Source: TPA_inf: Saccharomyces (taxonomy: Eukaryota). From it: 64,000 nucleotides of DNA. The translations under genes and the position numbers were made by a program. Location of the stretch: assembly GCA_000146045.2 (NCBI GenBank), contig BK006945.2:96001-160000 (forward strand), written 5' to 3'. Positions 4,947 through 57,977 of this stretch are shown here, piece by piece. Below the pieces are notes generated by a model. It was not told the DNA's origin. It saw nothing but the letters and a program-made list of their open reading frames with translations, and searched no databases. Every line of letters begins with the position of its first letter. Positions within the stretch are counted from its first letter, which is position 1.

Positions 4947-7900
4947 ATGGGTACGTCAAGCGAGGTTTCTCTCGCACATCATAGAGATATCTTCCATTAC
5001 TACGTCTCACTGAAGACTTTTTTCGAGGTGACTGGCGAAAATCGTGACAGGTCAAATTCGACACGAGCTCAAAAGGCCAGAGCCAAGCTGTTGAAGCTAT
5101 CTTCTTCGCAATTTTACGAGCTGAGTACAGACGTGTCCGATGAGCTGCAGAGGAGAATCGGTGAAGATGCTAACCAACCAGATTACCTTTTGCCGAAGGC
5201 AAATTTCCACATGAAAAGGAACCAGGCTAGACAGAAACTGGCCAATCTATCACAAACTCGATTTAATGATTTGTTGGACGATATCCTTTTTGAGATCAAG
5301 AGAAGAGGGTTCGACAAGGATTTGGATGCTCCACGGCCCCCATTACCGCAGCCGATGAAACAAGAGGTCAGCAAAGACAGCGATGATACTGCAAGAACAT
5401 CCACAAATTCTTCCTCTGTGACTCAAGTAGCTCCAAACGTCTCCGTACAACCTTCTTTGGTCATTCCTAAGATGGCATCTATCGATTGGTCTTCTGAGGA
5501 AGAAGAAGAGGAGCAAGTAAAGGAGAAGCCAAATGAACCGGAGGGAAAACAAACAAGCATGGATGAAAAGAAAGAGGCTAAACCTGCTCTAAACCCCATA
5601 GTTACAGATTCTGATCTGCCTGACTCCCAAGTGCTCGCTCGTGATATCACATCAATGGCAAGGACTCCAACAACGACGCATAAAAATTACTGGGACGTTA
5701 ATGATTCTCCAATTATCAAGGTAGATAAAGATATCGATAACGAAAAGGGTCCCGAACAGTTGAAGAGCCCTGAAGTACAACGGGCTGAGAACAATAACCC
5801 TAACTCAGAGATGGAAGACAAGGTTAAAGAACTGACTGATTTAAACAGCGACTTACATTTGCAAATTGAAGATTTGAATGCTAAGTTAGCATCTTTAACC
5901 AGCGAGAAGGAAAAGGAGAAGAAGGAAGAGAAGGAGGAAAAAGAAAAGGAAAAGAACTTAAAGATTAACTACACCATTGATGAAAGTTTTCAGAAAGAAT
6001 TGCTGTCATTAAACTCTCAAATCGGTGAATTATCAATTGAGAATGAAAATTTGAAGCAGAAAATTTCAGAATTCGAACTGCATCAAAAAAAGAATGACAA
6101 CCATAATGATTTGAAAATCACTGACGGTTTTATTAGCAAGTACTCTTCTGCCGATGGGCTCATTCCAGCTCAATACATCTTAAACGCTAACAACTTGATA
6201 ATTCAATTTACTACTAGGCTTTCCGCAGTACCCATAGGCGACTCCACGGCAATTTCCCATCAAATTGGCGAAGAGTTATTTCAAATATTATCCCAGTTAT
6301 CGAACCTAATCTCCCAGCTATTACTATCGGCCGACCTATTACAGTACAAAGATCAGGTCATTTTACTGAAGGCATCATTATCGCATGCGATCACATCGAT
6401 AAGATATTTCTCTGTTTACGGTCCCGTATTAATTCCGAAAATAACTGTGCAAGCTGCTGTTTCAGAGGTTTGTTTTGCCATGTGTAATCTAATTGATTCA
6501 GCGAAAATAAAATCCGATTCAAATGGTGAGAGCACCACCTCTAATGAAGGTAACCGACAGGTATTAGAATATTCTTCACCAACTGCTACCACCCCAATGA
6601 CGCCAACTTTCCCCTCGACTTCTGGAATAAATATGAAGAAGGGGTTTATAAACCCAAGAAAACCAGCATCTTTCTTGAATGATGTGGAGGAAGAAGAATC
6701 TCCAGTCAAGCCATTGAAAATTACACAAAAGGCAATTAACAGTCCGATCATAAGACCGTCATCGTCTAATGGAGTTCCAACAACCTCAAGAAAACCTTCA
6801 GGAACGGGGCTATTTAGTTTAATGATTGATTCATCAATTGCTAAGAATAGCTCCCATAAAGAGGATAATGATAAATATGTCTCGCCCATAAAGGCAGTAA
6901 CATCGGCCTCCAATTCTGCAAGTAGCAATATTTCCGAAATTCCTAAACTAACACTACCTCCACAAGCCAAAATCGGTACTGTTATTCCACCGTCAGAGAA
7001 TCAAGTTCCCAATATTAAAATCGAGAATACAGAAGAGGATAATAAAAGGAGTGACATAACAAATGAAATCTCTGTTAAACCAACTTCTAGCATTGCTGAT
7101 AAACTGAAACAATTTGAGCAAAGTTCCGAAAAGAAATCATCACCAAAGGAAAATCCTATAGCAAAAGAAGAAATGGATTCAAAACCAAAACTATCCAATA
7201 AATTTATCACTTCAATGAATGATGTGTCCACAGATGATTCAAGCTCTGATGGTAACGAAAATGACGATGCAGACGATGATGATGATTTTACCTATATGGC
7301 ATTGAAACAAACAATGAAGAGAGAAGGTTCAAAAATTGAAAAAAATAATGACAGCAAACTACCTGCAAATATAGTGGAACTTGATTTACATGAGTCACCG
7401 GAGTCCGTGAAGATTGAATCTCCTGAATCGATAAAGGAAATCACGTCATCTGAAATGTCTTCAGAAATGCCAAGTAGTTCGCTGCCTAAGAGATTAGTAG
7501 AGGATGTTGAGCCTTCAGAAATGCCAGAGAAGGGCGCATCTGTAGAATCAGTCAGGAAGAAAAATTTTCAAGAACCACTTGGTAATGTCGAATCTCCGGA
7601 TATGACGCAGAAGGTCAAGTCTTTGGGTATGACAGGAAAGGCTGTAGGCCCAGAATCAGATAGTAGGGTCGAATCTCCGGGCATGACAGGACAGATTAAA
7701 TCTTTGAATATGGCAGGAAAAGTTGTAGGCCCAGAAGCAGATAGTAGGGTCGAATCTCCGGGCATGAAAGAGCAGATTAAGTCTTTGGGTATGACAGGAA
7801 AAATTACAGCTCAAGAATCAATCAAGTCCCCGGAAGCGGCTAGGAAGTTGGCGTCATCAGGAGAAGTTGACAAAATTGAATCTCCAAGAATGGTAAGGGA

Positions 7901-9347
7901 AAGCGAGTCCTTGGAGGCAGTAGGCAATACTATCCCCTCAAACATGACAGTGAAAATGGAATCCCCAAATTTAAAGGGAAATACTGTGTCTGAACCTCAA
8001 GAAATAAGGAGAGACATTGCCTCCTCAGAGCCGATAGAGAATGTTGACCCCCCAAAAGTACTAAAAAAGATTGTCTTTCCAAAGGCTGTTAATAGAACTG
8101 GATCACCAAAATCAGTCGAAAAGACTCCATCTTCAGCTACACTGAAAAAGAGCGGGCTCCCAGAACCGAATAGCCAAATTGTTTCTCCTGAATTGGCAAA
8201 AAATTCACCTCTAGCACCGATAAAGAAAAATGTCGAGTTACGAGAAACTAATAAACCACATACTGAGACTATCACTTCTGTGGAACCAACAAACAAGGAT
8301 GCCAATACTTCTTGGAGAGACGCCGACTTAAACCGTACGATCAAACGAGAGGAGGAGGACGAAGATTTTGATAGAGTGAACCACAATATCCAGATCACTG
8401 GTGCATATACGAAAACTGGAAAAATTGATTATCATAAAATACCTGTTGATCGTAAAGCAAAAAGCGAAGCAGAAGTGCATACTTCCGAGGAAGATATTGA
8501 TGAATCAAATAATGTTAATGGAAAAAGAGCTGATGCCCAAATACACATCACTGAAAGAAAGCATGCTTTCGTAAATCCAACTGAAAATTCACAGGTAAAA
8601 AAGACGAGCCACTCACCATTTTTAAACAGTAAACCGGTTCAATACGAGAACTCAGAGTCGAACGGCGGCATTAACAACCACATAAAGATAAAAAATACTG
8701 GAGAAACTACGGCACATGACGAGAAACATTATAGTGATGATGATGATTCTAGCTATCAATTTGTTCCCATGAAACATGAAGAACAAGAACAAGAACAAAA
8801 CAGAAGTGAGGAAGAGGAAAGTGAAGATGACGATGAAGAGGAAGAAGACAGTGATTTTGATGTGGATACATTTGACATTGAAAATCCGGATAATACACTA
8901 TCAGAGTTACTATTGTATTTAGAACATCAAACAATGGACGTCATATCCACGATTCAATCGCTTTTGACATCGATCAAGAAACCACAGGTGACGAAGGGTA
9001 ATTTGAGGGGAGAATCGAATGCAATCAACCAAGTCATAGGTCAAATGGTGGACGCTACTAGCATATCAATGGAGCAAAGCAGAAATGCCAATTTGAAGAA
9101 ACACGGTGATTGGGTGGTGCAAAGTCTAAGAGACTGTTCGCGTAGAATGACAATTTTGTGCCAATTAACTGGCGATGGAATACTAGCGAAGGAAAAGAGC
9201 GATCAAGATTATGCTGACAAAAACTTCAAACAGCGGTTGGCAGGGATTGCGTTTGATGTTGCCAAATGTACAAAGGAGCTGGTAAAAACTGTAGAAGAGG
9301 CAAGTTTGAAGGACGAAATAAATTATTTGAATTCGAAGTTGAAGTAA
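4947..9347 (+). CDS. SPA2: Polarisome scaffold protein Spa2 (1466 aa)
   Basis: N-terminal Spa2-homology domain (MGTSSEVSLAHHRDIFHYYVSLKTFFEV...QFYELSTDVSDELQRR), coiled-coil, internal ~27-aa SPxMTxxxKSLxMxGK repeats, C-terminal conserved block; 1466 aa = YLL021W. Confidence 0.95.
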   Translation: MGTSSEVSLAHHRDIFHYYVSLKTFFEVTGENRDRSNSTRAQKARAKLLKLSSSQFYELSTDVSDELQRRIGEDANQPDYLLPKANFHMKRNQARQKLANLSQTRFNDLLDDILFEIKRRGFDKDLDAPRPPLPQPMKQEVSKDSDDTARTSTNSSSVTQVAPNVSVQPSLVIPKMASIDWSSEEEEEEQVKEKPNEPEGKQTSMDEKKEAKPALNPIVTDSDLPDSQVLARDITSMARTPTTTHKNYWDVNDSPIIKVDKDIDNEKGPEQLKSPEVQRAENNNPNSEMEDKVKELTDLNSDLHLQIEDLNAKLASLTSEKEKEKKEEKEEKEKEKNLKINYTIDESFQKELLSLNSQIGELSIENENLKQKISEFELHQKKNDNHNDLKITDGFISKYSSADGLIPAQYILNANNLIIQFTTRLSAVPIGDSTAISHQIGEELFQILSQLSNLISQLLLSADLLQYKDQVILLKASLSHAITSIRYFSVYGPVLIPKITVQAAVSEVCFAMCNLIDSAKIKSDSNGESTTSNEGNRQVLEYSSPTATTPMTPTFPSTSGINMKKGFINPRKPASFLNDVEEEESPVKPLKITQKAINSPIIRPSSSNGVPTTSRKPSGTGLFSLMIDSSIAKNSSHKEDNDKYVSPIKAVTSASNSASSNISEIPKLTLPPQAKIGTVIPPSENQVPNIKIENTEEDNKRSDITNEISVKPTSSIADKLKQFEQSSEKKSSPKENPIAKEEMDSKPKLSNKFITSMNDVSTDDSSSDGNENDDADDDDDFTYMALKQTMKREGSKIEKNNDSKLPANIVELDLHESPESVKIESPESIKEITSSEMSSEMPSSSLPKRLVEDVEPSEMPEKGASVESVRKKNFQEPLGNVESPDMTQKVKSLGMTGKAVGPESDSRVESPGMTGQIKSLNMAGKVVGPEADSRVESPGMKEQIKSLGMTGKITAQESIKSPEAARKLASSGEVDKIESPRMVRESESLEAVGNTIPSNMTVKMESPNLKGNTVSEPQEIRRDIASSEPIENVDPPKVLKKIVFPKAVNRTGSPKSVEKTPSSATLKKSGLPEPNSQIVSPELAKNSPLAPIKKNVELRETNKPHTETITSVEPTNKDANTSWRDADLNRTIKREEEDEDFDRVNHNIQITGAYTKTGKIDYHKIPVDRKAKSEAEVHTSEEDIDESNNVNGKRADAQIHITERKHAFVNPTENSQVKKTSHSPFLNSKPVQYENSESNGGINNHIKIKNTGETTAHDEKHYSDDDDSSYQFVPMKHEEQEQEQNRSEEEESEDDDEEEEDSDFDVDTFDIENPDNTLSELLLYLEHQTMDVISTIQSLLTSIKKPQVTKGNLRGESNAINQVIGQMVDATSISMEQSRNANLKKHGDWVVQSLRDCSRRMTILCQLTGDGILAKEKSDQDYADKNFKQRLAGIAFDVAKCTKELVKTVEEASLKDEINYLNSKLK
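7587..7829 (+). repeat. Three tandem copies of an 81-bp (27-codon) repeat inside SPA2, flanked by more degenerate copies
   Basis: gtcgaatctccgg(a/g)(t/c)atga...gatagtagg recurs at 7587, 7668, 7749 (period 81); protein VESPxMTxxxKSLxMxGKxVGPExDSR x3. Confidence 0.85.
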
Positions 9348-9685
9348 AGTTAGTAGTATCTAGAGGAGAAAGAAAAGGAAGACAAAGACAATCAATAGAA
9401 TGTATTATGTATGACATATAATAATAATAATTATAATAATAATAATAATAGTAGTAGCAGTAATAATAATATTATTATAGTATATTAAAACAACAAAAAA
9501 TTAGTAAAAATACTATAAATGTTTGAATATGAAGATATATATGTAGGAAGAATTTTTATTGAATATAGAAATTTAAAGAAATATTATTAAAAACCGGAAA
9601 ATGAAAAAGAAGAGTTAAAAAAAAAAAAAACGGAACTAGTAAAAGATGTGAAAAAAAGAAGAGAAAAGTAGAACGAGAACACCCA

Positions 9686-26008: not shown

Positions 26009-26038
<30 letters not shown>
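26008..26038. repeat. 31-nt homopolymeric poly(dA:dT) tract between convergent 3' ends of EMC6 and PUF3
   Basis: uninterrupted run of A counted directly. Confidence 0.9.
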
Positions 26039-28714: not shown

Positions 28715-29400
28715 TTATACCCGCAATATTGCGTTATTCAGAAGAAATTTAAATGCGTAGTTCTTGTTTGTTTTCTTGTTTGCTTGCGTACTTCTATGCT
28801 TATAGATATATCAGTAGCAAGGAAGTTTCCTTTTCACCGCCTTTCAATGTTCCTATCTTTTTCTTATGTTTCTCTTTAGAGACCAGATGACCAGAAAAAA
28901 ATTAGCTAAGCAGTGTTATACTATTTACAGTAGATATTCAAATATGTGCAGGCACCACTTATTTTTCTTTTTCCTTCTTTTCTTTGTTTTTTTTTTTCTC
29001 CTATTCATCAAGCTTCATACATCCAATATACATTCTCAAGTGTGCTAATGGTACATTTGGGAAATTATCTTCCTCTCTCCACAATTTTTAGAAGGAAAAA
29101 AGAAATGCAGTTCAGGGTAACAGAGTGCGCAATTACCGTAGATAGCGATCGGATGTTTATCTTTAGCCCTCTTTTTCTAGCTCAAACCCCGGCACGAATT
29201 TTTTAGGTCTTGCTGCTCTGCCCTCGGGCACTTTTCTTCGAGAAGTTCTGGGGCGGTCTGATCGGGAAAAAACGTTCCCTTTTCGGACGTATCGCAGGCA
29301 ATGTGCAAAAGCTTATTATATACGAGAAAAGAAACGCGAAGGAACGAAAGAAGATGAAAAAAATGCAGCGATAAAATGATATTGTGGTTAATCTAAATTT

Positions 29401-29431
29401 ATATATATATATATATATACATATATATATA
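29401..29431. repeat. (TA)n dinucleotide microsatellite (~15 units, one interruption) in PUF3/YEH1 divergent promoter
   Basis: atatatatatatatatatacatatatatat seen directly. Confidence 0.9.
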
Positions 29432-33329: not shown

Positions 33330-34613
33330 TTATATTGTTACATCCAAAATTTTGCCCACATCCAGTGAGGTTTTCACAGAAAGGTCTTCTAAAAGAGGAA
33401 TAATATCTAATAATTCGTTATCATGAGTATCTGAGAACCAGGACGAAATCGGTATTGCATGTTGGGGATGAAAAATATAAGATGCCGGAGAGTTATCGAG
33501 AATGATGATATCTGATAACGGCCTTCCAATCTGGGATAAGTTTTTTATATAGTTTCCTTCATAGTTATAGCAAGCCTCTCTGAATAATCTGTGATGAATG
33601 ACTTTATCTGTGTCTAATATATCAAGCAAAGGATCACCGTATCGAGAGACACTAGCCGTGAAGACTACAACCTCGAATAATTTTCCGACTCTTTCCAAAA
33701 ATTCTTCCACACCAGGTCTTTTAATGACATAGACATTGTGTACTTGGTCATCTATTTCCACAGACAAAACAAAATCCGCAGATCGTAAGTATTTGAAAGA
33801 AGAGTGTACCAAGGTTTCATCCAGGTCCAGTATTAGGCATTTCTTGCCCTTTGTACTTTCATCTTGTGGGGGGAGCAGAGTGTTGTAACCTGGTGCATGA
33901 TACTGGCCCTGCTGCAAAAGCGTTAGATCAATATATTCTTCATCTTCATCGTCTTCGTCGTCGGCATCGTTGGAAGTTTCACTGGCTTGAGAGCTGCTAC
34001 TTACCCTACTCAAATTCATATCTTGGATAAGATGGTCAGACGATACTTGTACAGTAGGCCCTCGCTGCTGCGACTGCGACTGCGACTGTGACTGTGACTG
34101 TGACTGGGGTTGTGGTTGTGGTTGTGACTGTTGTTGTTGTTGCTGCTGTTGTTTTTTCTGCCTGGAAGTATCTTTCACAGCATCTCCTTTTTCCTGTACA
34201 ATGCCACGACTGCGACGGTTATCTTCATCGTCGATCTCTTCATCTTCGTCAACCTCGTATTTTTCCTCGTAAAGATCATCTTTACTAATTCGCTTCTCTA
34301 CTTTTGTCATATTATTAGTAGTAGTGGCGGTGACGGCTGCAGTCGGCGACGATGGCTTCTTTTTTTCATTATCGTTCGTGCTTATCCCAGATTTACCGGT
34401 GGATCGTTCAGTGGAACTGAAAGTAGCGGCTGAATTTGTCTTAGAAGGAGGAGAGTTTGTCTGATGTACGCCACGGGTTCGGCTTTTCGTGTTGGAATGT
34501 TTAACGCTTCTGTTTTTATTGAGAGAACTGCTCTGTTGTTGGCGATAAGCAGAATTGGAATTGGATTGTGTCGTCTCGGAAGAGCAGCACAGTATTGACG
34601 ATATGAAACCCAT
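33330..34613 (-). CDS. PSR1: Plasma-membrane FCP1/SCP-like HAD phosphatase (427 aa), N-terminal Cys cluster for palmitoylation
   Basis: HAD motif [12 protein letters not shown]; N-term [13 protein letters not shown]; internal (Q)n and (SQ/PQ)n repeats; 427 aa = YLL010C. Confidence 0.9.
34062..34152 (-). repeat. Hexanucleotide/trinucleotide repeat (CAGTCG/CAGTCA/CAACCA then CAA/CAG) encoding [28 protein letters not shown] in PSR1
   Basis: cgactgcgactgcgactgtgactgtgactgtgactggggttgtggttgtggttgtgactgttgttgttgttgctgctgttg seen directly. Confidence 0.9.
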
Positions 34614-34992: not shown

Positions 34993-35023
34993 GTCACGTG
35001 ATACGTCCTTTTCTGGTCACGTG
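34993..35023. promoter_or_regulatory. Two Cbf1/Pho4-type E-boxes (GTCACGTG) 15 bp apart in PSR1 upstream / COX17 downstream intergenic
   Basis: gtgtCACGTGatacgtccttttctggtCACGTGgtc; both match RTCACRTG. Confidence 0.5.
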
Positions 35024-35620: not shown

Positions 35621-35728
35621 GTTGAAAATTGTAAGTTAGAATATGCTTAGATAGTATGAGTATTTACGTTGGTAACTTGGGTTTCGAATTGGAGCTGTGT
35701 GCCTACAACAGCGTCTTATATATATACT

Positions 35729-51889: not shown

Positions 51890-54163
51890 ATGGCTAGTTT
51901 AGAAGATCTTATTCCTACTGTCAACAAGCTGCAGGATGTTATGTACGACTCCGGGATCGATACACTCGATTTGCCCATTTTAGCTGTTGTTGGGTCACAA
52001 TCCTCCGGGAAATCCTCGATATTGGAAACGTTAGTTGGAAGAGATTTTTTACCTAGGGGTACTGGTATTGTCACAAGAAGACCGTTAGTTCTTCAACTTA
52101 ATAACATATCTCCAAATTCTCCTCTAATAGAGGAAGATGATAACTCAGTTAATCCACATGATGAAGTTACAAAAATATCAGGATTCGAAGCTGGTACGAA
52201 GCCCTTGGAGTATAGGGGCAAGGAAAGAAATCATGCAGATGAGTGGGGGGAATTCCTGCATATACCAGGAAAACGGTTTTATGATTTCGACGATATCAAA
52301 AGAGAAATCGAAAACGAAACAGCGAGGATAGCCGGTAAGGATAAGGGCATCAGTAAGATTCCGATTAATTTGAAAGTGTTTTCCCCTCATGTTTTGAATC
52401 TAACGCTAGTAGATTTGCCTGGGATTACAAAGGTTCCTATTGGGGAACAACCACCTGATATTGAAAAGCAAATCAAGAATTTGATCCTAGACTATATAGC
52501 CACTCCAAATTGTTTAATCTTGGCCGTCTCTCCAGCTAACGTTGATCTTGTTAATTCTGAATCCTTAAAGTTGGCCAGAGAGGTAGACCCTCAGGGCAAA
52601 AGGACTATTGGTGTCATTACCAAATTAGATTTGATGGATTCTGGGACTAATGCTCTAGATATCTTGTCTGGAAAAATGTATCCTCTGAAATTGGGGTTTG
52701 TTGGTGTAGTGAATCGCTCGCAACAGGATATTCAATTGAACAAAACCGTTGAAGAATCATTGGACAAAGAAGAGGACTATTTCAGGAAACATCCAGTCTA
52801 CAGAACTATTTCAACAAAGTGTGGTACGCGTTATTTAGCTAAATTGCTAAACCAGACATTATTAAGCCACATTAGAGACAAGCTTCCGGATATTAAAACC
52901 AAGTTAAATACCCTGATCTCTCAAACCGAACAAGAGCTCGCTAGATACGGTGGCGTAGGAGCTACTACTAATGAAAGCAGAGCTAGCCTTGTTCTTCAAC
53001 TAATGAATAAGTTTTCTACAAACTTCATTTCATCTATAGATGGTACATCCTCCGACATTAATACGAAGGAACTCTGTGGTGGTGCCCGTATTTATTACAT
53101 TTACAATAATGTTTTTGGGAATTCTTTGAAGTCGATTGATCCAACTTCTAATTTATCCGTTCTTGATGTTAGAACAGCGATTAGAAATTCTACTGGTCCC
53201 CGTCCTACATTATTTGTACCTGAGTTGGCTTTTGACCTATTGGTTAAACCTCAAATTAAACTTTTACTAGAACCATCTCAACGTTGCGTCGAGTTAGTTT
53301 ACGAGGAGCTGATGAAAATATGCCATAAATGTGGCTCCGCTGAGCTAGCTAGATATCCTAAATTGAAGAGTATGTTAATAGAAGTTATAAGCGAACTACT
53401 TAGAGAAAGGTTACAACCTACTCGCTCTTACGTTGAAAGCTTGATTGACATACATCGAGCCTACATCAATACTAATCATCCTAATTTTTTAAGTGCAACA
53501 GAAGCAATGGATGACATCATGAAAACGCGTAGAAAACGGAATCAAGAGTTATTGAAAAGTAAGTTGTCTCAACAGGAGAATGGACAAACCAACGGTATTA
53601 ATGGTACTTCATCTATCTCTTCGAATATAGATCAAGATTCTGCTAAAAACAGTGACTACGATGATGATGGTATCGACGCAGAATCGAAGCAAACGAAGGA
53701 CAAATTTTTAAATTATTTCTTTGGCAAGGATAAAAAGGGTCAACCTGTGTTCGATGCATCAGACAAGAAAAGATCCATTGCCGGTGATGGAAATATTGAA
53801 GATTTTAGAAATTTACAAATATCAGATTTTTCACTGGGCGATATAGATGACCTTGAAAACGCTGAACCTCCACTGACCGAGAGAGAAGAATTGGAGTGCG
53901 AATTAATTAAACGTCTGATTGTTTCATACTTTGATATTATAAGAGAAATGATTGAAGATCAAGTACCAAAGGCAGTTATGTGTTTACTCGTCAATTATTG
54001 TAAGGATTCTGTTCAAAACAGATTGGTAACCAAACTCTACAAAGAAACACTGTTTGAAGAACTTTTAGTTGAGGATCAAACTTTAGCTCAAGATAGAGAA
54101 CTATGTGTGAAATCACTCGGAGTTTATAAAAAGGCTGCAACCCTTATTAGTAATATTCTGTAA
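51890..54163 (+). CDS. DNM1: Dynamin-related GTPase for mitochondrial/peroxisomal fission (757 aa)
   Basis: Dynamin GTPase motifs GSQSSGKSS (G1), DLPG (G3), TKLD (G4); middle domain, insert B, GED; 757 aa = YLL001W. Confidence 0.95.
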   Translation: MASLEDLIPTVNKLQDVMYDSGIDTLDLPILAVVGSQSSGKSSILETLVGRDFLPRGTGIVTRRPLVLQLNNISPNSPLIEEDDNSVNPHDEVTKISGFEAGTKPLEYRGKERNHADEWGEFLHIPGKRFYDFDDIKREIENETARIAGKDKGISKIPINLKVFSPHVLNLTLVDLPGITKVPIGEQPPDIEKQIKNLILDYIATPNCLILAVSPANVDLVNSESLKLAREVDPQGKRTIGVITKLDLMDSGTNALDILSGKMYPLKLGFVGVVNRSQQDIQLNKTVEESLDKEEDYFRKHPVYRTISTKCGTRYLAKLLNQTLLSHIRDKLPDIKTKLNTLISQTEQELARYGGVGATTNESRASLVLQLMNKFSTNFISSIDGTSSDINTKELCGGARIYYIYNNVFGNSLKSIDPTSNLSVLDVRTAIRNSTGPRPTLFVPELAFDLLVKPQIKLLLEPSQRCVELVYEELMKICHKCGSAELARYPKLKSMLIEVISELLRERLQPTRSYVESLIDIHRAYINTNHPNFLSATEAMDDIMKTRRKRNQELLKSKLSQQENGQTNGINGTSSISSNIDQDSAKNSDYDDDGIDAESKQTKDKFLNYFFGKDKKGQPVFDASDKKRSIAGDGNIEDFRNLQISDFSLGDIDDLENAEPPLTEREELECELIKRLIVSYFDIIREMIEDQVPKAVMCLLVNYCKDSVQNRLVTKLYKETLFEELLVEDQTLAQDRELCVKSLGVYKKAATLISNIL

Positions 54164-54824
54164 TTGCATAATTCATCTCATTTTTGATCTTACTTCAACA
54201 TTGCGGGCGTGATTATAGGTCAGTGTTTATTCCTTTACTCAGTTGATGATTTCAAATGTGCTCTCCTCTCCATTCTTTTTCTTGTTAATAAAAATCCATA
54301 ACTAAATAAATAACAAATATTAGCAATCGCAAAAGTATTAACTAAGCTAGAGAACCTTCACTAGAGAAGCTCTACCTAAAGGTATAGAACAGGAAAAAGT
54401 GTTTTTATTTTGGCGGACTTCGTGGAAGATTGCCTTCCATCAATAATAAGCGTAGTCCATAGGTACGATCATTTCCTTTTTAACCGTTAAGCAAGCGACA
54501 AGATGTATTTTGTTTACCAGCGAATGCTCTTATTTATCTTCTGCGCCTTTCCAATAATCTAATTATCAATGCTACGAATGATTATAGTTTTAACTAGATG
54601 AACGAAATTTCTAGGTTATTAAAGAGTACGTTATGCATCAAAAGAATATCAGTCATAATAAGCAGATAGACCTTCTACATGGTTTGTAGACAACCAAACT
54701 GGTGTATGCTAATATCAACGAGTAAACGCTTACTTTTCTAAAGTTGAATATTTGAAGTACACACCCGCGTAAAGAGTTTTTACCCCGAAAACAAATTTTT
54801 ATGCTTGAAAAATAGCTAATAAAA

Positions 54825-54947
54825 TGTTTTTATTGTTCGGATAACAAATACAATAGTGTTATTAAAAAATAAAACTTATTTAAAAATAGTAATTTAAATT
54901 ATTATTTTATTTTAATAAACTTTTTAATAATATTTATTACACGTGAT
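54825..54947 (-). other. CEN12: Point centromere CEN12: CDEI (54940-54947, ATCACGTG on minus), CDEII (~88 bp, >90% A+T, 54852-54939), CDEIII (54825-54851, GTATTTGTTATCCGAACAATAAAAACA on minus, with essential CCG/TCCGAA core)
   Basis: All three elements read directly in correct order/spacing and orientation; located in the 1.2-kb ORF-free gap between DNM1 (YLL001W) and YLR001C where CEN12 is expected. Confidence 0.88.
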
Positions 54948-55388
54948 TTAATATATCCTGTTTTTTTTTCATCATTCTCTTTCTTTCTTATGTTAACCTC
55001 GTACTACAAGTTTTCTCCTTATAAAAAGCTGACTAAAATTAGAGATTGATAATCATAAATAAATTTAGTAGCCATTTCCATTTTTACATTTTGATTTAAT
55101 CGACACTCAAAGTTCTTATTTGAAAGCTAGTTTAGAACTTATTTGTTTGCTCCTTGATGAATATAATGAGAAGAAATTCCACTCAGATTAAATATGAAGA
55201 TTGTTAACGGCAAGACGCTAAAAGAAAAGGAAAGGAAGTAGATGATGGCAAATAAGGTCACTTTCTTGTTAGTTACATATACTTTCACAGAAACTTGAAA
55301 ATAACCACAAAACTTAAAACGAACGTTATTTTGTTCAATTGCTTAATTTGTGAAGATATTATCTACTACTTAAATGATATATTAACAC

Positions 55389-57977
55389 TTATGAGGTACT
55401 GACACTGCGACCGCCCTTTTGATCTGATCCCACCCTTCGTATATCTCTGGGGGTTTGTATAGCGTTCACAGAATATGAACCTTCAAAAGTGGGTTGAGAA
55501 AGTGGTGATAAATGCGCTGTTGCCGAGTAAGAAGGGTTGTGGATTATCGGAGAGTGTTGAATCAGTGGTGTTGTTGCTCGATCATTTCTCCCTCTTTGAT
55601 TTTTGTCTTTTACTTTTCCACCCCTGGTAATTATTATGCAAAACAATAAAGAAATGGCTATGGTAACACCTATTATAACCCCAAATCCAACCGCTATCCC
55701 TGGCAAGCGCAGATGGTATTTCTCGCTGTTTAGCCAAGATAAGGATATGGGTTTGTCGATCAGAAATATGCATGAACTTTTCAAATTAGTAGTGCATCCT
55801 GTTTTAAGAACTCTAACTTCCTTGGTCCAGTCGCCCTGTATGCTAACAAAAACGTTGTCCAGATGATCTTTTCTGCAGTTTAGTTTTGTACCTAGTTTAG
55901 TGCTAATGGAGCCATTGCAGTCTAGTAGGTTTTGCGTTACATTAGCAGGAATCAAATGGAGTTCGAGGAATTTTCTTAAGTTTGTCGAGTTCGCCGTGAT
56001 GCCACTTAATGGAATAGAAGAAGCCGTTGGAACTAAAAGCGAGTACTCTTCGTTATTCCAAATGATTGAAGAAAGGTCATAAAACAAGTTAAAAAAGTCA
56101 AATATTTCTTTTGTTCCAGTAGTTTCTATCAGCTCTTTTAGGGATATCTCCAAATCGACTGGAAAATCCAATTGGTCTATAGGATGGATAACTCCCTGGT
56201 TGAAAAATATATCGGAACTCTCCTCAATAATAATACTTTCCTTTATAGTACTCACTGAGATTTTCGTAAGGTTTTGGCTTCCCACAATTTTTTGTACGCC
56301 AATAGATACAGAATTTCCGTATAAATTCTTGACAGTAGTCGAAATACTATAATTGTTGGAATAAATAAGGTCTTCGAAGATTAGGTTCCTCATAAGTAAA
56401 TTTAGGGCGGTTTTGTTTGACCTCAAATAGTCTATAGTCAAATCATTATTGTCCCATGAATTCATACATGGAAGAAGTATCGTGTACCCCTTATGATTTG
56501 ATGGTAGATCCAAAAGGTTAAGTTCCTTCAAGAGCATTAGGGAAATAGAACAGTGGTTTTCTGGTGCTAATGACAACACTAAGTCGCCCGGTAATTGAAG
56601 ATCATCGTCAATAGAATAAATGGACGTATTACCAATCTCATAAGGTTTTGTGTTTAAAATCTTGAAGCGACCATTGATGTAATAACCTTTATTAGACCTT
56701 GTGATTTTGAACTTTTGGCAGTGTCCACCTAGTCTTTTAGCTGAAGAGCAAAAGGCGGAGTCATAAATTTGGGTAGGTGCGTATTGAATCGGGCGCAATG
56801 AGGAAAAGTCCTGTTCAAGGTCAATTTTACCTTCTACAAAATGGTACAGAAGTGATGGTTTTGTGTACCCACGATCCTCATTAAAAGAGGCTTGTGGTAC
56901 AAATATGGTGATTTTCCTTCCGTTTTGAATGAATTTTTCAAGGTCTCTGAAGTATAACTCCTTTACGAATTCTGAGCAGTTCAAACCGTGCAAGTACTTT
57001 TCAGCATCAAACTGTATATGCGTTCGTAAAAAGTCTAAGTCAGAAAATCCATGCACGACGCCTATTTCAAAAATTCTGTTTGATATGGGTGAGTAATCTG
57101 AATTATTTACACTTACTGATGTACCTTCTGAATTACTCTTCATAAAAAGTTTTCGATTGTTTTTATTTTCTAAAATTAGTTCCTTGGGTAAAATACCACC
57201 ATACACGTCATCAATAATGAGTTCTTGAAGAAGGGAAGTTCTATCTGCGGCCCATTTGGCCTGAGAAATTGTATTAGATTTACCCAATTTATTATATTTG
57301 TCAAGTAGATAGTTTATTTCGATTGTATTGAAGAATTTTCGAAAATTAACATCTAAGGGCACTAAAACTGTGGATGAGTTTGTATATGCATTATAGTTTG
57401 AAAAACTGCTGATAAAATCACTAAATATCTTTAAATCTTGGGTTTCTTCATCTAGTTGTACCAGCAACTCATTTATTTGAGGTTGAATTAGTAAAAGATT
57501 GTTAATACCTTGTAATGAAGCATTCTGGAAACTAGGCAGCAAATCGGGTTCGACAACAGCAATTTCATTGACAAAGCAATGGCGCTCATGCTTTCTCAGC
57601 AATAAAGGTGCTTTTGCAGCTCTTTTCTCCAGGTAGGTACCGTTTTCAAGGTCTCTCACTTGCAATACCCTATCATGAATAAGGAAATCTTCAATATGGA
57701 AATGCTCCTCAAATTGGTCTGTGGTTTGGTCCCCCTTAATAAATGCTGAATTAATCGGAGCAAAAAGTGTAAAGTTCTGTAGCTCATTTAAGTACTGTAC
57801 GTGACCAGTTTTCTGAATAATCCTTAAAAAAGTTGAGAATTCAACATTTTCTGAGAGGATATCTATTACTGTGCTAAATGGAAAATCGTCCCCTGGGTTT
57901 TGTAGAAGTGCTTGTGTAAGCCCTAATATCGGCAGTAGCCAAAAAATGTATTTAATTGTTTGGATTGCCATGTTCAT
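55389..57977 (-). CDS. Fasciclin (FAS1)-domain vacuolar membrane protein of unknown function (862 aa from second Met; ORF open one codon further to 57980)
   Basis: Signal peptide MNMAIQTIKYIFWLLPILGLTQA, C-terminal TM (IAVGFGVIIGVTIAISLLFCIII); size/position = YLR001C. Confidence 0.82.
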   Translation of the reverse strand: MNMAIQTIKYIFWLLPILGLTQALLQNPGDDFPFSTVIDILSENVEFSTFLRIIQKTGHVQYLNELQNFTLFAPINSAFIKGDQTTDQFEEHFHIEDFLIHDRVLQVRDLENGTYLEKRAAKAPLLLRKHERHCFVNEIAVVEPDLLPSFQNASLQGINNLLLIQPQINELLVQLDEETQDLKIFSDFISSFSNYNAYTNSSTVLVPLDVNFRKFFNTIEINYLLDKYNKLGKSNTISQAKWAADRTSLLQELIIDDVYGGILPKELILENKNNRKLFMKSNSEGTSVSVNNSDYSPISNRIFEIGVVHGFSDLDFLRTHIQFDAEKYLHGLNCSEFVKELYFRDLEKFIQNGRKITIFVPQASFNEDRGYTKPSLLYHFVEGKIDLEQDFSSLRPIQYAPTQIYDSAFCSSAKRLGGHCQKFKITRSNKGYYINGRFKILNTKPYEIGNTSIYSIDDDLQLPGDLVLSLAPENHCSISLMLLKELNLLDLPSNHKGYTILLPCMNSWDNNDLTIDYLRSNKTALNLLMRNLIFEDLIYSNNYSISTTVKNLYGNSVSIGVQKIVGSQNLTKISVSTIKESIIIEESSDIFFNQGVIHPIDQLDFPVDLEISLKELIETTGTKEIFDFFNLFYDLSSIIWNNEEYSLLVPTASSIPLSGITANSTNLRKFLELHLIPANVTQNLLDCNGSISTKLGTKLNCRKDHLDNVFVSIQGDWTKEVRVLKTGCTTNLKSSCIFLIDKPISLSWLNSEKYHLRLPGIAVGFGVIIGVTIAISLLFCIIITRGGKVKDKNQRGRNDRATTPLIQHSPIIHNPSYSATAHLSPLSQPTFEGSYSVNAIQTPRDIRRVGSDQKGGRSVSTS

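Follow-up and report, generated by a model that had tools for sequence, protein, structure and literature searches.

[quoted passage not shown]

Does the gap between two convergent genes of this 64,000-nucleotide stretch of yeast DNA (the window) hold a centromere, and if so, which one? A sequence-only reading had proposed a canonical point centromere, CEN12, at 54825-54947. We find that the element at 54828-54947 is almost certainly CEN12, the genetically defined point centromere of chromosome XII in Saccharomyces cerevisiae, the sequence being S288C-like (Table 1). The proposed end at 54947 was exact, and the proposed start was off by a trivial 3 bp, the element stopping at 54828. This identification draws on four things observed for CEN12 itself: its sequence anatomy, its single occurrence in the window, the genes that flank it and its evolutionary signature; no evidence against it was found. 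CEN12 is already known, and nothing in 54828-54947 is unexpected. It serves here only as a landmark, placing the window in the S288C-like centromeric region of S. cerevisiae chromosome XII and picking out the single non-coding element in these 64 kb that the chromosome needs in order to be inherited.

Table 1. Positions of CEN12, its parts and its neighbours in the window, followed by the orthologous elements in four other species (positions within the locus named).
Feature	Position	Strand	Description
Point centromere CEN12 (CDEI-CDEII-CDEIII)	54828..54947	-	120 bp
CDEI ATCACGTG	54947-54940	-	exact match to RTCACRTG
CDEII	54939-54853	-	87 bp, 94.3% A+T, 5 G/C bases
CDEIII TGTATTTGTTATCCGAACAATAAAA	54852-54828	-	25 bp, holds TCCGAA
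CDEIII half-sites	TGT 54852-54850, central G 54845, CCG 54840-54838	-	CCG called essential
AGCTATTTTT	54808..54817	-	21-30 bp past CCG
CDEIII-proximal pericentromeric flank	54328..54827	-	500 bp
DNM1 (YLL001W), dynamin-related GTPase	51890..54163	+	exact full-length match to NP_013100.1, S288C
YLR001C, fasciclin-domain protein	55389..57977	-	exact match to NP_013101.1, S288C; Pfam Fasciclin
S. paradoxus, L001	8162-8280		CDEI GTCACGTG; CDEII 86 bp, 92% A+T; CDEIII TGTATTTGATATCCGAACAGAGAAA
S. kudriavzevii, L002	7957-8074		CDEI ATCACGTG; CDEII 85 bp, 86% A+T; CDEIII TGTGTTTGACATCCGAAAGCAAAAA
N. glabratus, L006	about 6715-6830		E-box CATGTGAT; CDEII 77 bp; CCGAA present
Z. rouxii, L007	about 6762-6930		CDEI ATCACATG; CDEII 134 bp; CCGAA present

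In the published definition, CDEI reads RTCACRTG, CDEII spans 78-87 bp with an A+T content of 76-98%, and CDEIII contains an absolutely conserved (T/A)(T/A)CCGAA whose second C is essential (PMC10810202). The point centromeres of S. cerevisiae, one to each chromosome, measure 111-120 bp in total, and the longest of the 16 is CEN12, at 120 bp (PMC10381965, PMC3983907). Reading 54780-54990 on the minus strand, we found all three elements in the order and spacing that had been proposed, with a total length of 8 + 87 + 25 = 120 bp. The proposed A+T content of CDEII, above 90%, agreed with the 94.3% observed, while its length of ~88 bp was corrected to 87 bp. This length lies at the top of the published range, in keeping with the rank of CEN12 as the longest centromere. 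The TCCGAA core claimed for CDEIII was found as part of ATCCGAA, an instance of the invariant motif, in the CDEIII string TGTATTTGTTATCCGAAC. Against the textbook CDEIII consensus, 2 of 26 positions differ (TTATCCGAAC in place of TTTCCGAAA), and both departures lie outside (T/A)(T/A)CCGAA. CDEI, CDEII, CDEIII and the total length at 54828-54947 thus all agree with the sequence definition of a point centromere.

CEN3 served as the structural and biochemical reference (PMC6077249, PMC10381965), and its CDEI, GTCACATG, also fits RTCACRTG. CEN12 matches the CEN3 CDEIII probe TGTATTTGATTTCCGAAAGTTAAA at 19 of 24 bases and has the same TGT-N4-G-N4-CCG spacing (PMC6077249), the two differing in that CEN3 has ATTTCCGAAA where CEN12 has TTATCCGAAC. 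The pseudo-palindromic TGT and CCG half-sites are read by the zinc clusters of Cep3, and the fully conserved central G is contacted by Ctf13 (PMC6077249); the essential role of the CCG was shown at other centromeres (PMC10810202, PMC6077249). By analogy with the CEN3 model, AGCTATTTTT would occupy the position at which Ndc10 touches the T run to the right of CDEIII. In primary sequence the CDEII of CEN3 is unrelated to that of CEN12. A full-text literature search with the CEN12 CDEIII string gave no match.

The surroundings of the element were also as proposed. The 1.2-kb ORF-free gap is 1225 bp long (54164..55388), with no ORF of at least 50 aa and a longest one of 49 aa. The two genes named as convergent neighbours, DNM1 on the plus strand and YLR001C on the minus strand, were recovered as exact protein matches, and both are transcribed toward CEN12. 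The DNM1 ORF carries the Pfam domains Dynamin_N, Dynamin_M and GED. The systematic names YLL001W and YLR001C denote the first gene on each arm of chromosome XII, left and right respectively, and the position of its centromere must therefore be between the two. The SGD coordinates of CEN12, which we take to be chrXII 150828-150947, would coincide with window positions 54828-54947 for a window beginning at 96001. CEN12 as described in SGD and the literature shares the location between YLL001W/DNM1 and YLR001C, the length of 120 bp and the CDEI-II-III order, and a comparison by location, length and element order detected no differences (PMC10381965, PMC3983907, PMC12309097). An independent S. cerevisiae assembly (L011) has the same intergenic sequence over all 1225 bp.

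Loci for comparison with other species were retrieved via orthologs of YLR001C. In S. paradoxus, S. kudriavzevii, N. glabratus and Z. rouxii, CDEI, CDEII and CDEIII lie between the YLR001C and DNM1 orthologs (Table 1), and in the two Saccharomyces species the element shares its orientation as well as its flanking genes with CEN12 of the window. N. glabratus and Z. rouxii have a CDEI-like E-box, an A+T-rich spacer and CCGAA as in CEN12, but CDEII lengths that differ from it; the N. glabratus E-box CATGTGAT has 1 mismatch in the forward direction and is exact on the opposite strand. The claim that the element is CEN12 and the DNA chromosome XII is therefore upheld by the published anatomy and 120-bp length, by the YLL001W/YLR001C flanks and by syntenic orthologous centromeres.

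We compared three Saccharomyces species (the S. cerevisiae window, S. paradoxus and S. kudriavzevii) in pairs. Coding DNA was 79-93% identical, CDEI 88-100% and CDEIII 72-84%, with the TGT, the G and the CCGAA of CDEIII invariant. CDEII identity was 0.63-0.70, compared with 0.64-0.67 +/- 0.03-0.04 for composition-matched shuffles. Despite this shuffle-level identity, CDEII kept a length of 85-87 bp and an A+T content of 86-94% across the three species. Flanking intergenic DNA was barely more identical than shuffles. At the level of sequence, this conservation pattern is independent evidence of centromere-type constraint on 54828-54947. Yeast centromeres are reported to behave generally in this way (PMC3155921), and our comparison repeats that published picture of a fast-evolving CDEII flanked by conserved protein-binding sites.

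More distant relatives gave a mixed picture. Naumovozyma dairenensis keeps the convergent YLR001C-DNM1 pair, and its 304-bp gap (L008:6590-6893, 66% A+T) contains no CDEI, CDEII or CDEIII. Naumovozyma reportedly has a different type of centromere, sited elsewhere, with which such a gap is consistent. In K. dobzhanskii the YLR001C-DNM1 gene neighbourhood is rearranged and synteny is broken. The syntenic YLR001C-DNM1 gap of Lachancea fermentati (L014:6605-7120) contains a possible centromere that is inverted, with an extended A+T-rich spacer and, on the other strand, TGTGTCATACTACCGAAGTTAAAAAA; its E-box is GTCAGCTGAC (CAGCTG) and not CACGTG, and judging by these motifs the candidate is doubtful.

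One alternative is that a promoter-type Cbf1 E-box, an A+T-rich intergenic stretch and a fortuitous CCGAA came together by chance at 54828-54947. Taken singly, some parts of the element would allow this. Matches to RTCACRTG numbered 7 in the 64-kb window compared with 5.3 expected, so that CDEI by itself is not special, and yeast intergenic DNA is A+T-rich. CDEI-type E-boxes also occur at non-centromeric sites: GTCACGTGAT and GGTCACGTGG, 23 bp apart, form a cluster at 34993-35023, between an ORF ending at 34613 on the minus strand and one starting at 35669 on the plus strand, and a further copy of ATCACGTG lies at 44872-44879. From their sequence and setting, the clustered E-boxes look like promoter sites of the Cbf1/Pho4 type, and their presence means that CDEI alone is no mark of a centromere. 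Scanning the window for the 26-nt CDEIII consensus with up to 3 mismatches tolerated returned the CEN12 site as the sole match, with 2 mismatches, where 0 were expected. No other 87-bp stretch of the 64 kb is as A+T-rich as CDEII, or reaches 92%. We then defined a tripartite pattern as RTCACRTG followed by 70-99 nt of at least 85% A+T and by TGT-N4-G-N4-CCGAA. It occurred once in the window, at CEN12, leaving no rival CDEI-II-III element there, and in none of 300 simulated windows with dinucleotide frequencies matched to the 64-kb window. Four other species also have a tripartite element at the syntenic site, and since both DNM1 and YLR001C end here, the E-box would have no promoter to serve. 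Synteny and statistics have effectively refuted a chance juxtaposition already, and we consider it extremely improbable.

The A+T block might instead act mainly as the unwinding element of a replication origin, or as the shared terminator of the convergent genes, and not as part of a centromere. Two 3' ends do converge on the gap, which also contains an exact match to the ARS consensus, TTTTACATTTT, at 55082-55092. This match lies outside the element, 135 bp from CDEI, and such matches occur in the window at chance level (4 found compared with 3.2 expected), so that it is no evidence of an origin; an origin nearby would in any case be compatible with a centromere. Neither an origin nor a terminator explains why CDEI and CDEIII are conserved, why their spacing is fixed or why CDEII keeps its length across species. 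We therefore give this proposal next to no credence, and retain CEN12 as the identity of the element.

Several internal features of CDEII were considered and dropped. Near the midpoint of CDEII, at ~54895.5, a repeat search placed the centre of a 26-nt inverted repeat and of a palindrome. In none of the three species did CDEII or the complete centromere fold with a better energy than dinucleotide shuffles (z +0.31 to -0.86), and this dyad symmetry was set aside because A+T-only sequence yields it by itself. Neither an enrichment of A/T homopolymer runs nor an A-to-T polarity of CDEII was significant for CEN12 or its two orthologs. TRF reported no tandem repeat in CDEII, which is no simple repeat. 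The remaining patches of very high A+T content in the window are simple repeats, all of them intergenic: (ATA)18 at 9418-9471, A30 at 26009-26038 and (TA)16 at 29400-29431. Elsewhere in the window, an 81-bp tandem repeat at 7587-7802 (2.7 copies, 83% matches) lies within a 1466-aa ORF at 4947-9347 on the plus strand and is presumably a 27-residue repeat of the protein. No tRNA genes or Rfam families were found across the whole window.

Established knowledge of point centromeres indicates how CEN12 would work. A Cbf1 homodimer would bind the CDEI E-box, and CBF3 (Ndc10, Cep3, Ctf13 and Skp1), the essential specifier, would bind CDEIII sequence-specifically. Ndc10 would bring in the chaperone Scm3, which would load a single Cse4 (CENP-A) nucleosome, wrapped by the A+T-rich DNA of CDEII. 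On this Cse4 nucleosome the inner and outer kinetochore (CCAN and KMN) would assemble and capture one microtubule. We infer protein occupancy, and a function in mitotic and meiotic segregation, at 54828-54947 from the literature, where all 16 centromeres, the 120-bp class (Cen12) included, are reported to be occupied in vivo by Cbf1, by CBF3 and by one Cse4 nucleosome (PMC3983907).

CEN12 can replace CEN15 in single-chromosome yeast and support segregation, and SY14 grew better with CEN12 plus 500 bp of CDEIII-proximal sequence than with CEN12 by itself (PMC12309097). This transplantation result hints at a larger functional CEN12. We hold it possible, if rather unlikely, that the functional centromere exceeds the 120-bp core and that CEN12 may require a discrete element within 54328-54827 to be fully active.

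A public S. cerevisiae chromosome XII assembly (L012; GCA_033956085.1, CP135955.1) has a synthetic design of the Sc2.0 type. Clustered synonymous recoding with a period of 3, resembling PCRTags, is present in NOC3, YLR001C and DNM1, and the NOC3 stop codon carries a G-to-A change consistent with TAG to TAA. Three loxPsym sites, at 6037, 6271 and 6880 of this locus, correspond to window positions 54942/54941, 54743/54742 and 54167/54166. One of them is inserted within CDEI (ATCACG-loxPsym-TG), destroying the CACGTG E-box and leaving CDEII and CDEIII untouched. As read from this assembly, the arrangement suggests that a synXII chromosome with a split CDEI may be maintained by CBF3 and CDEII alone. 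The identification of CEN12 is unaffected by either the split CDEI of synXII or a functional centromere larger than the core.

Short-read assemblies from Logan, both of a second S. cerevisiae strain (L009 and L010) and of a relative with a 76%-identity YLR001C ortholog (L003-L005), break at or just before the centromere. The ortholog of this relative (P0033) lies only on short contigs, which end about 160-315 bp past the stop codon and before any centromere. L009 and L010 end at 7098, L009 stopping 60 nt into CDEII. The contig breaks at CEN12 probably reflect poor coverage or assembly of DNA with more than 90% A+T. In the part of CDEII that it covers, L009 differs from the window by one substitution, T to C, at window position 54918.
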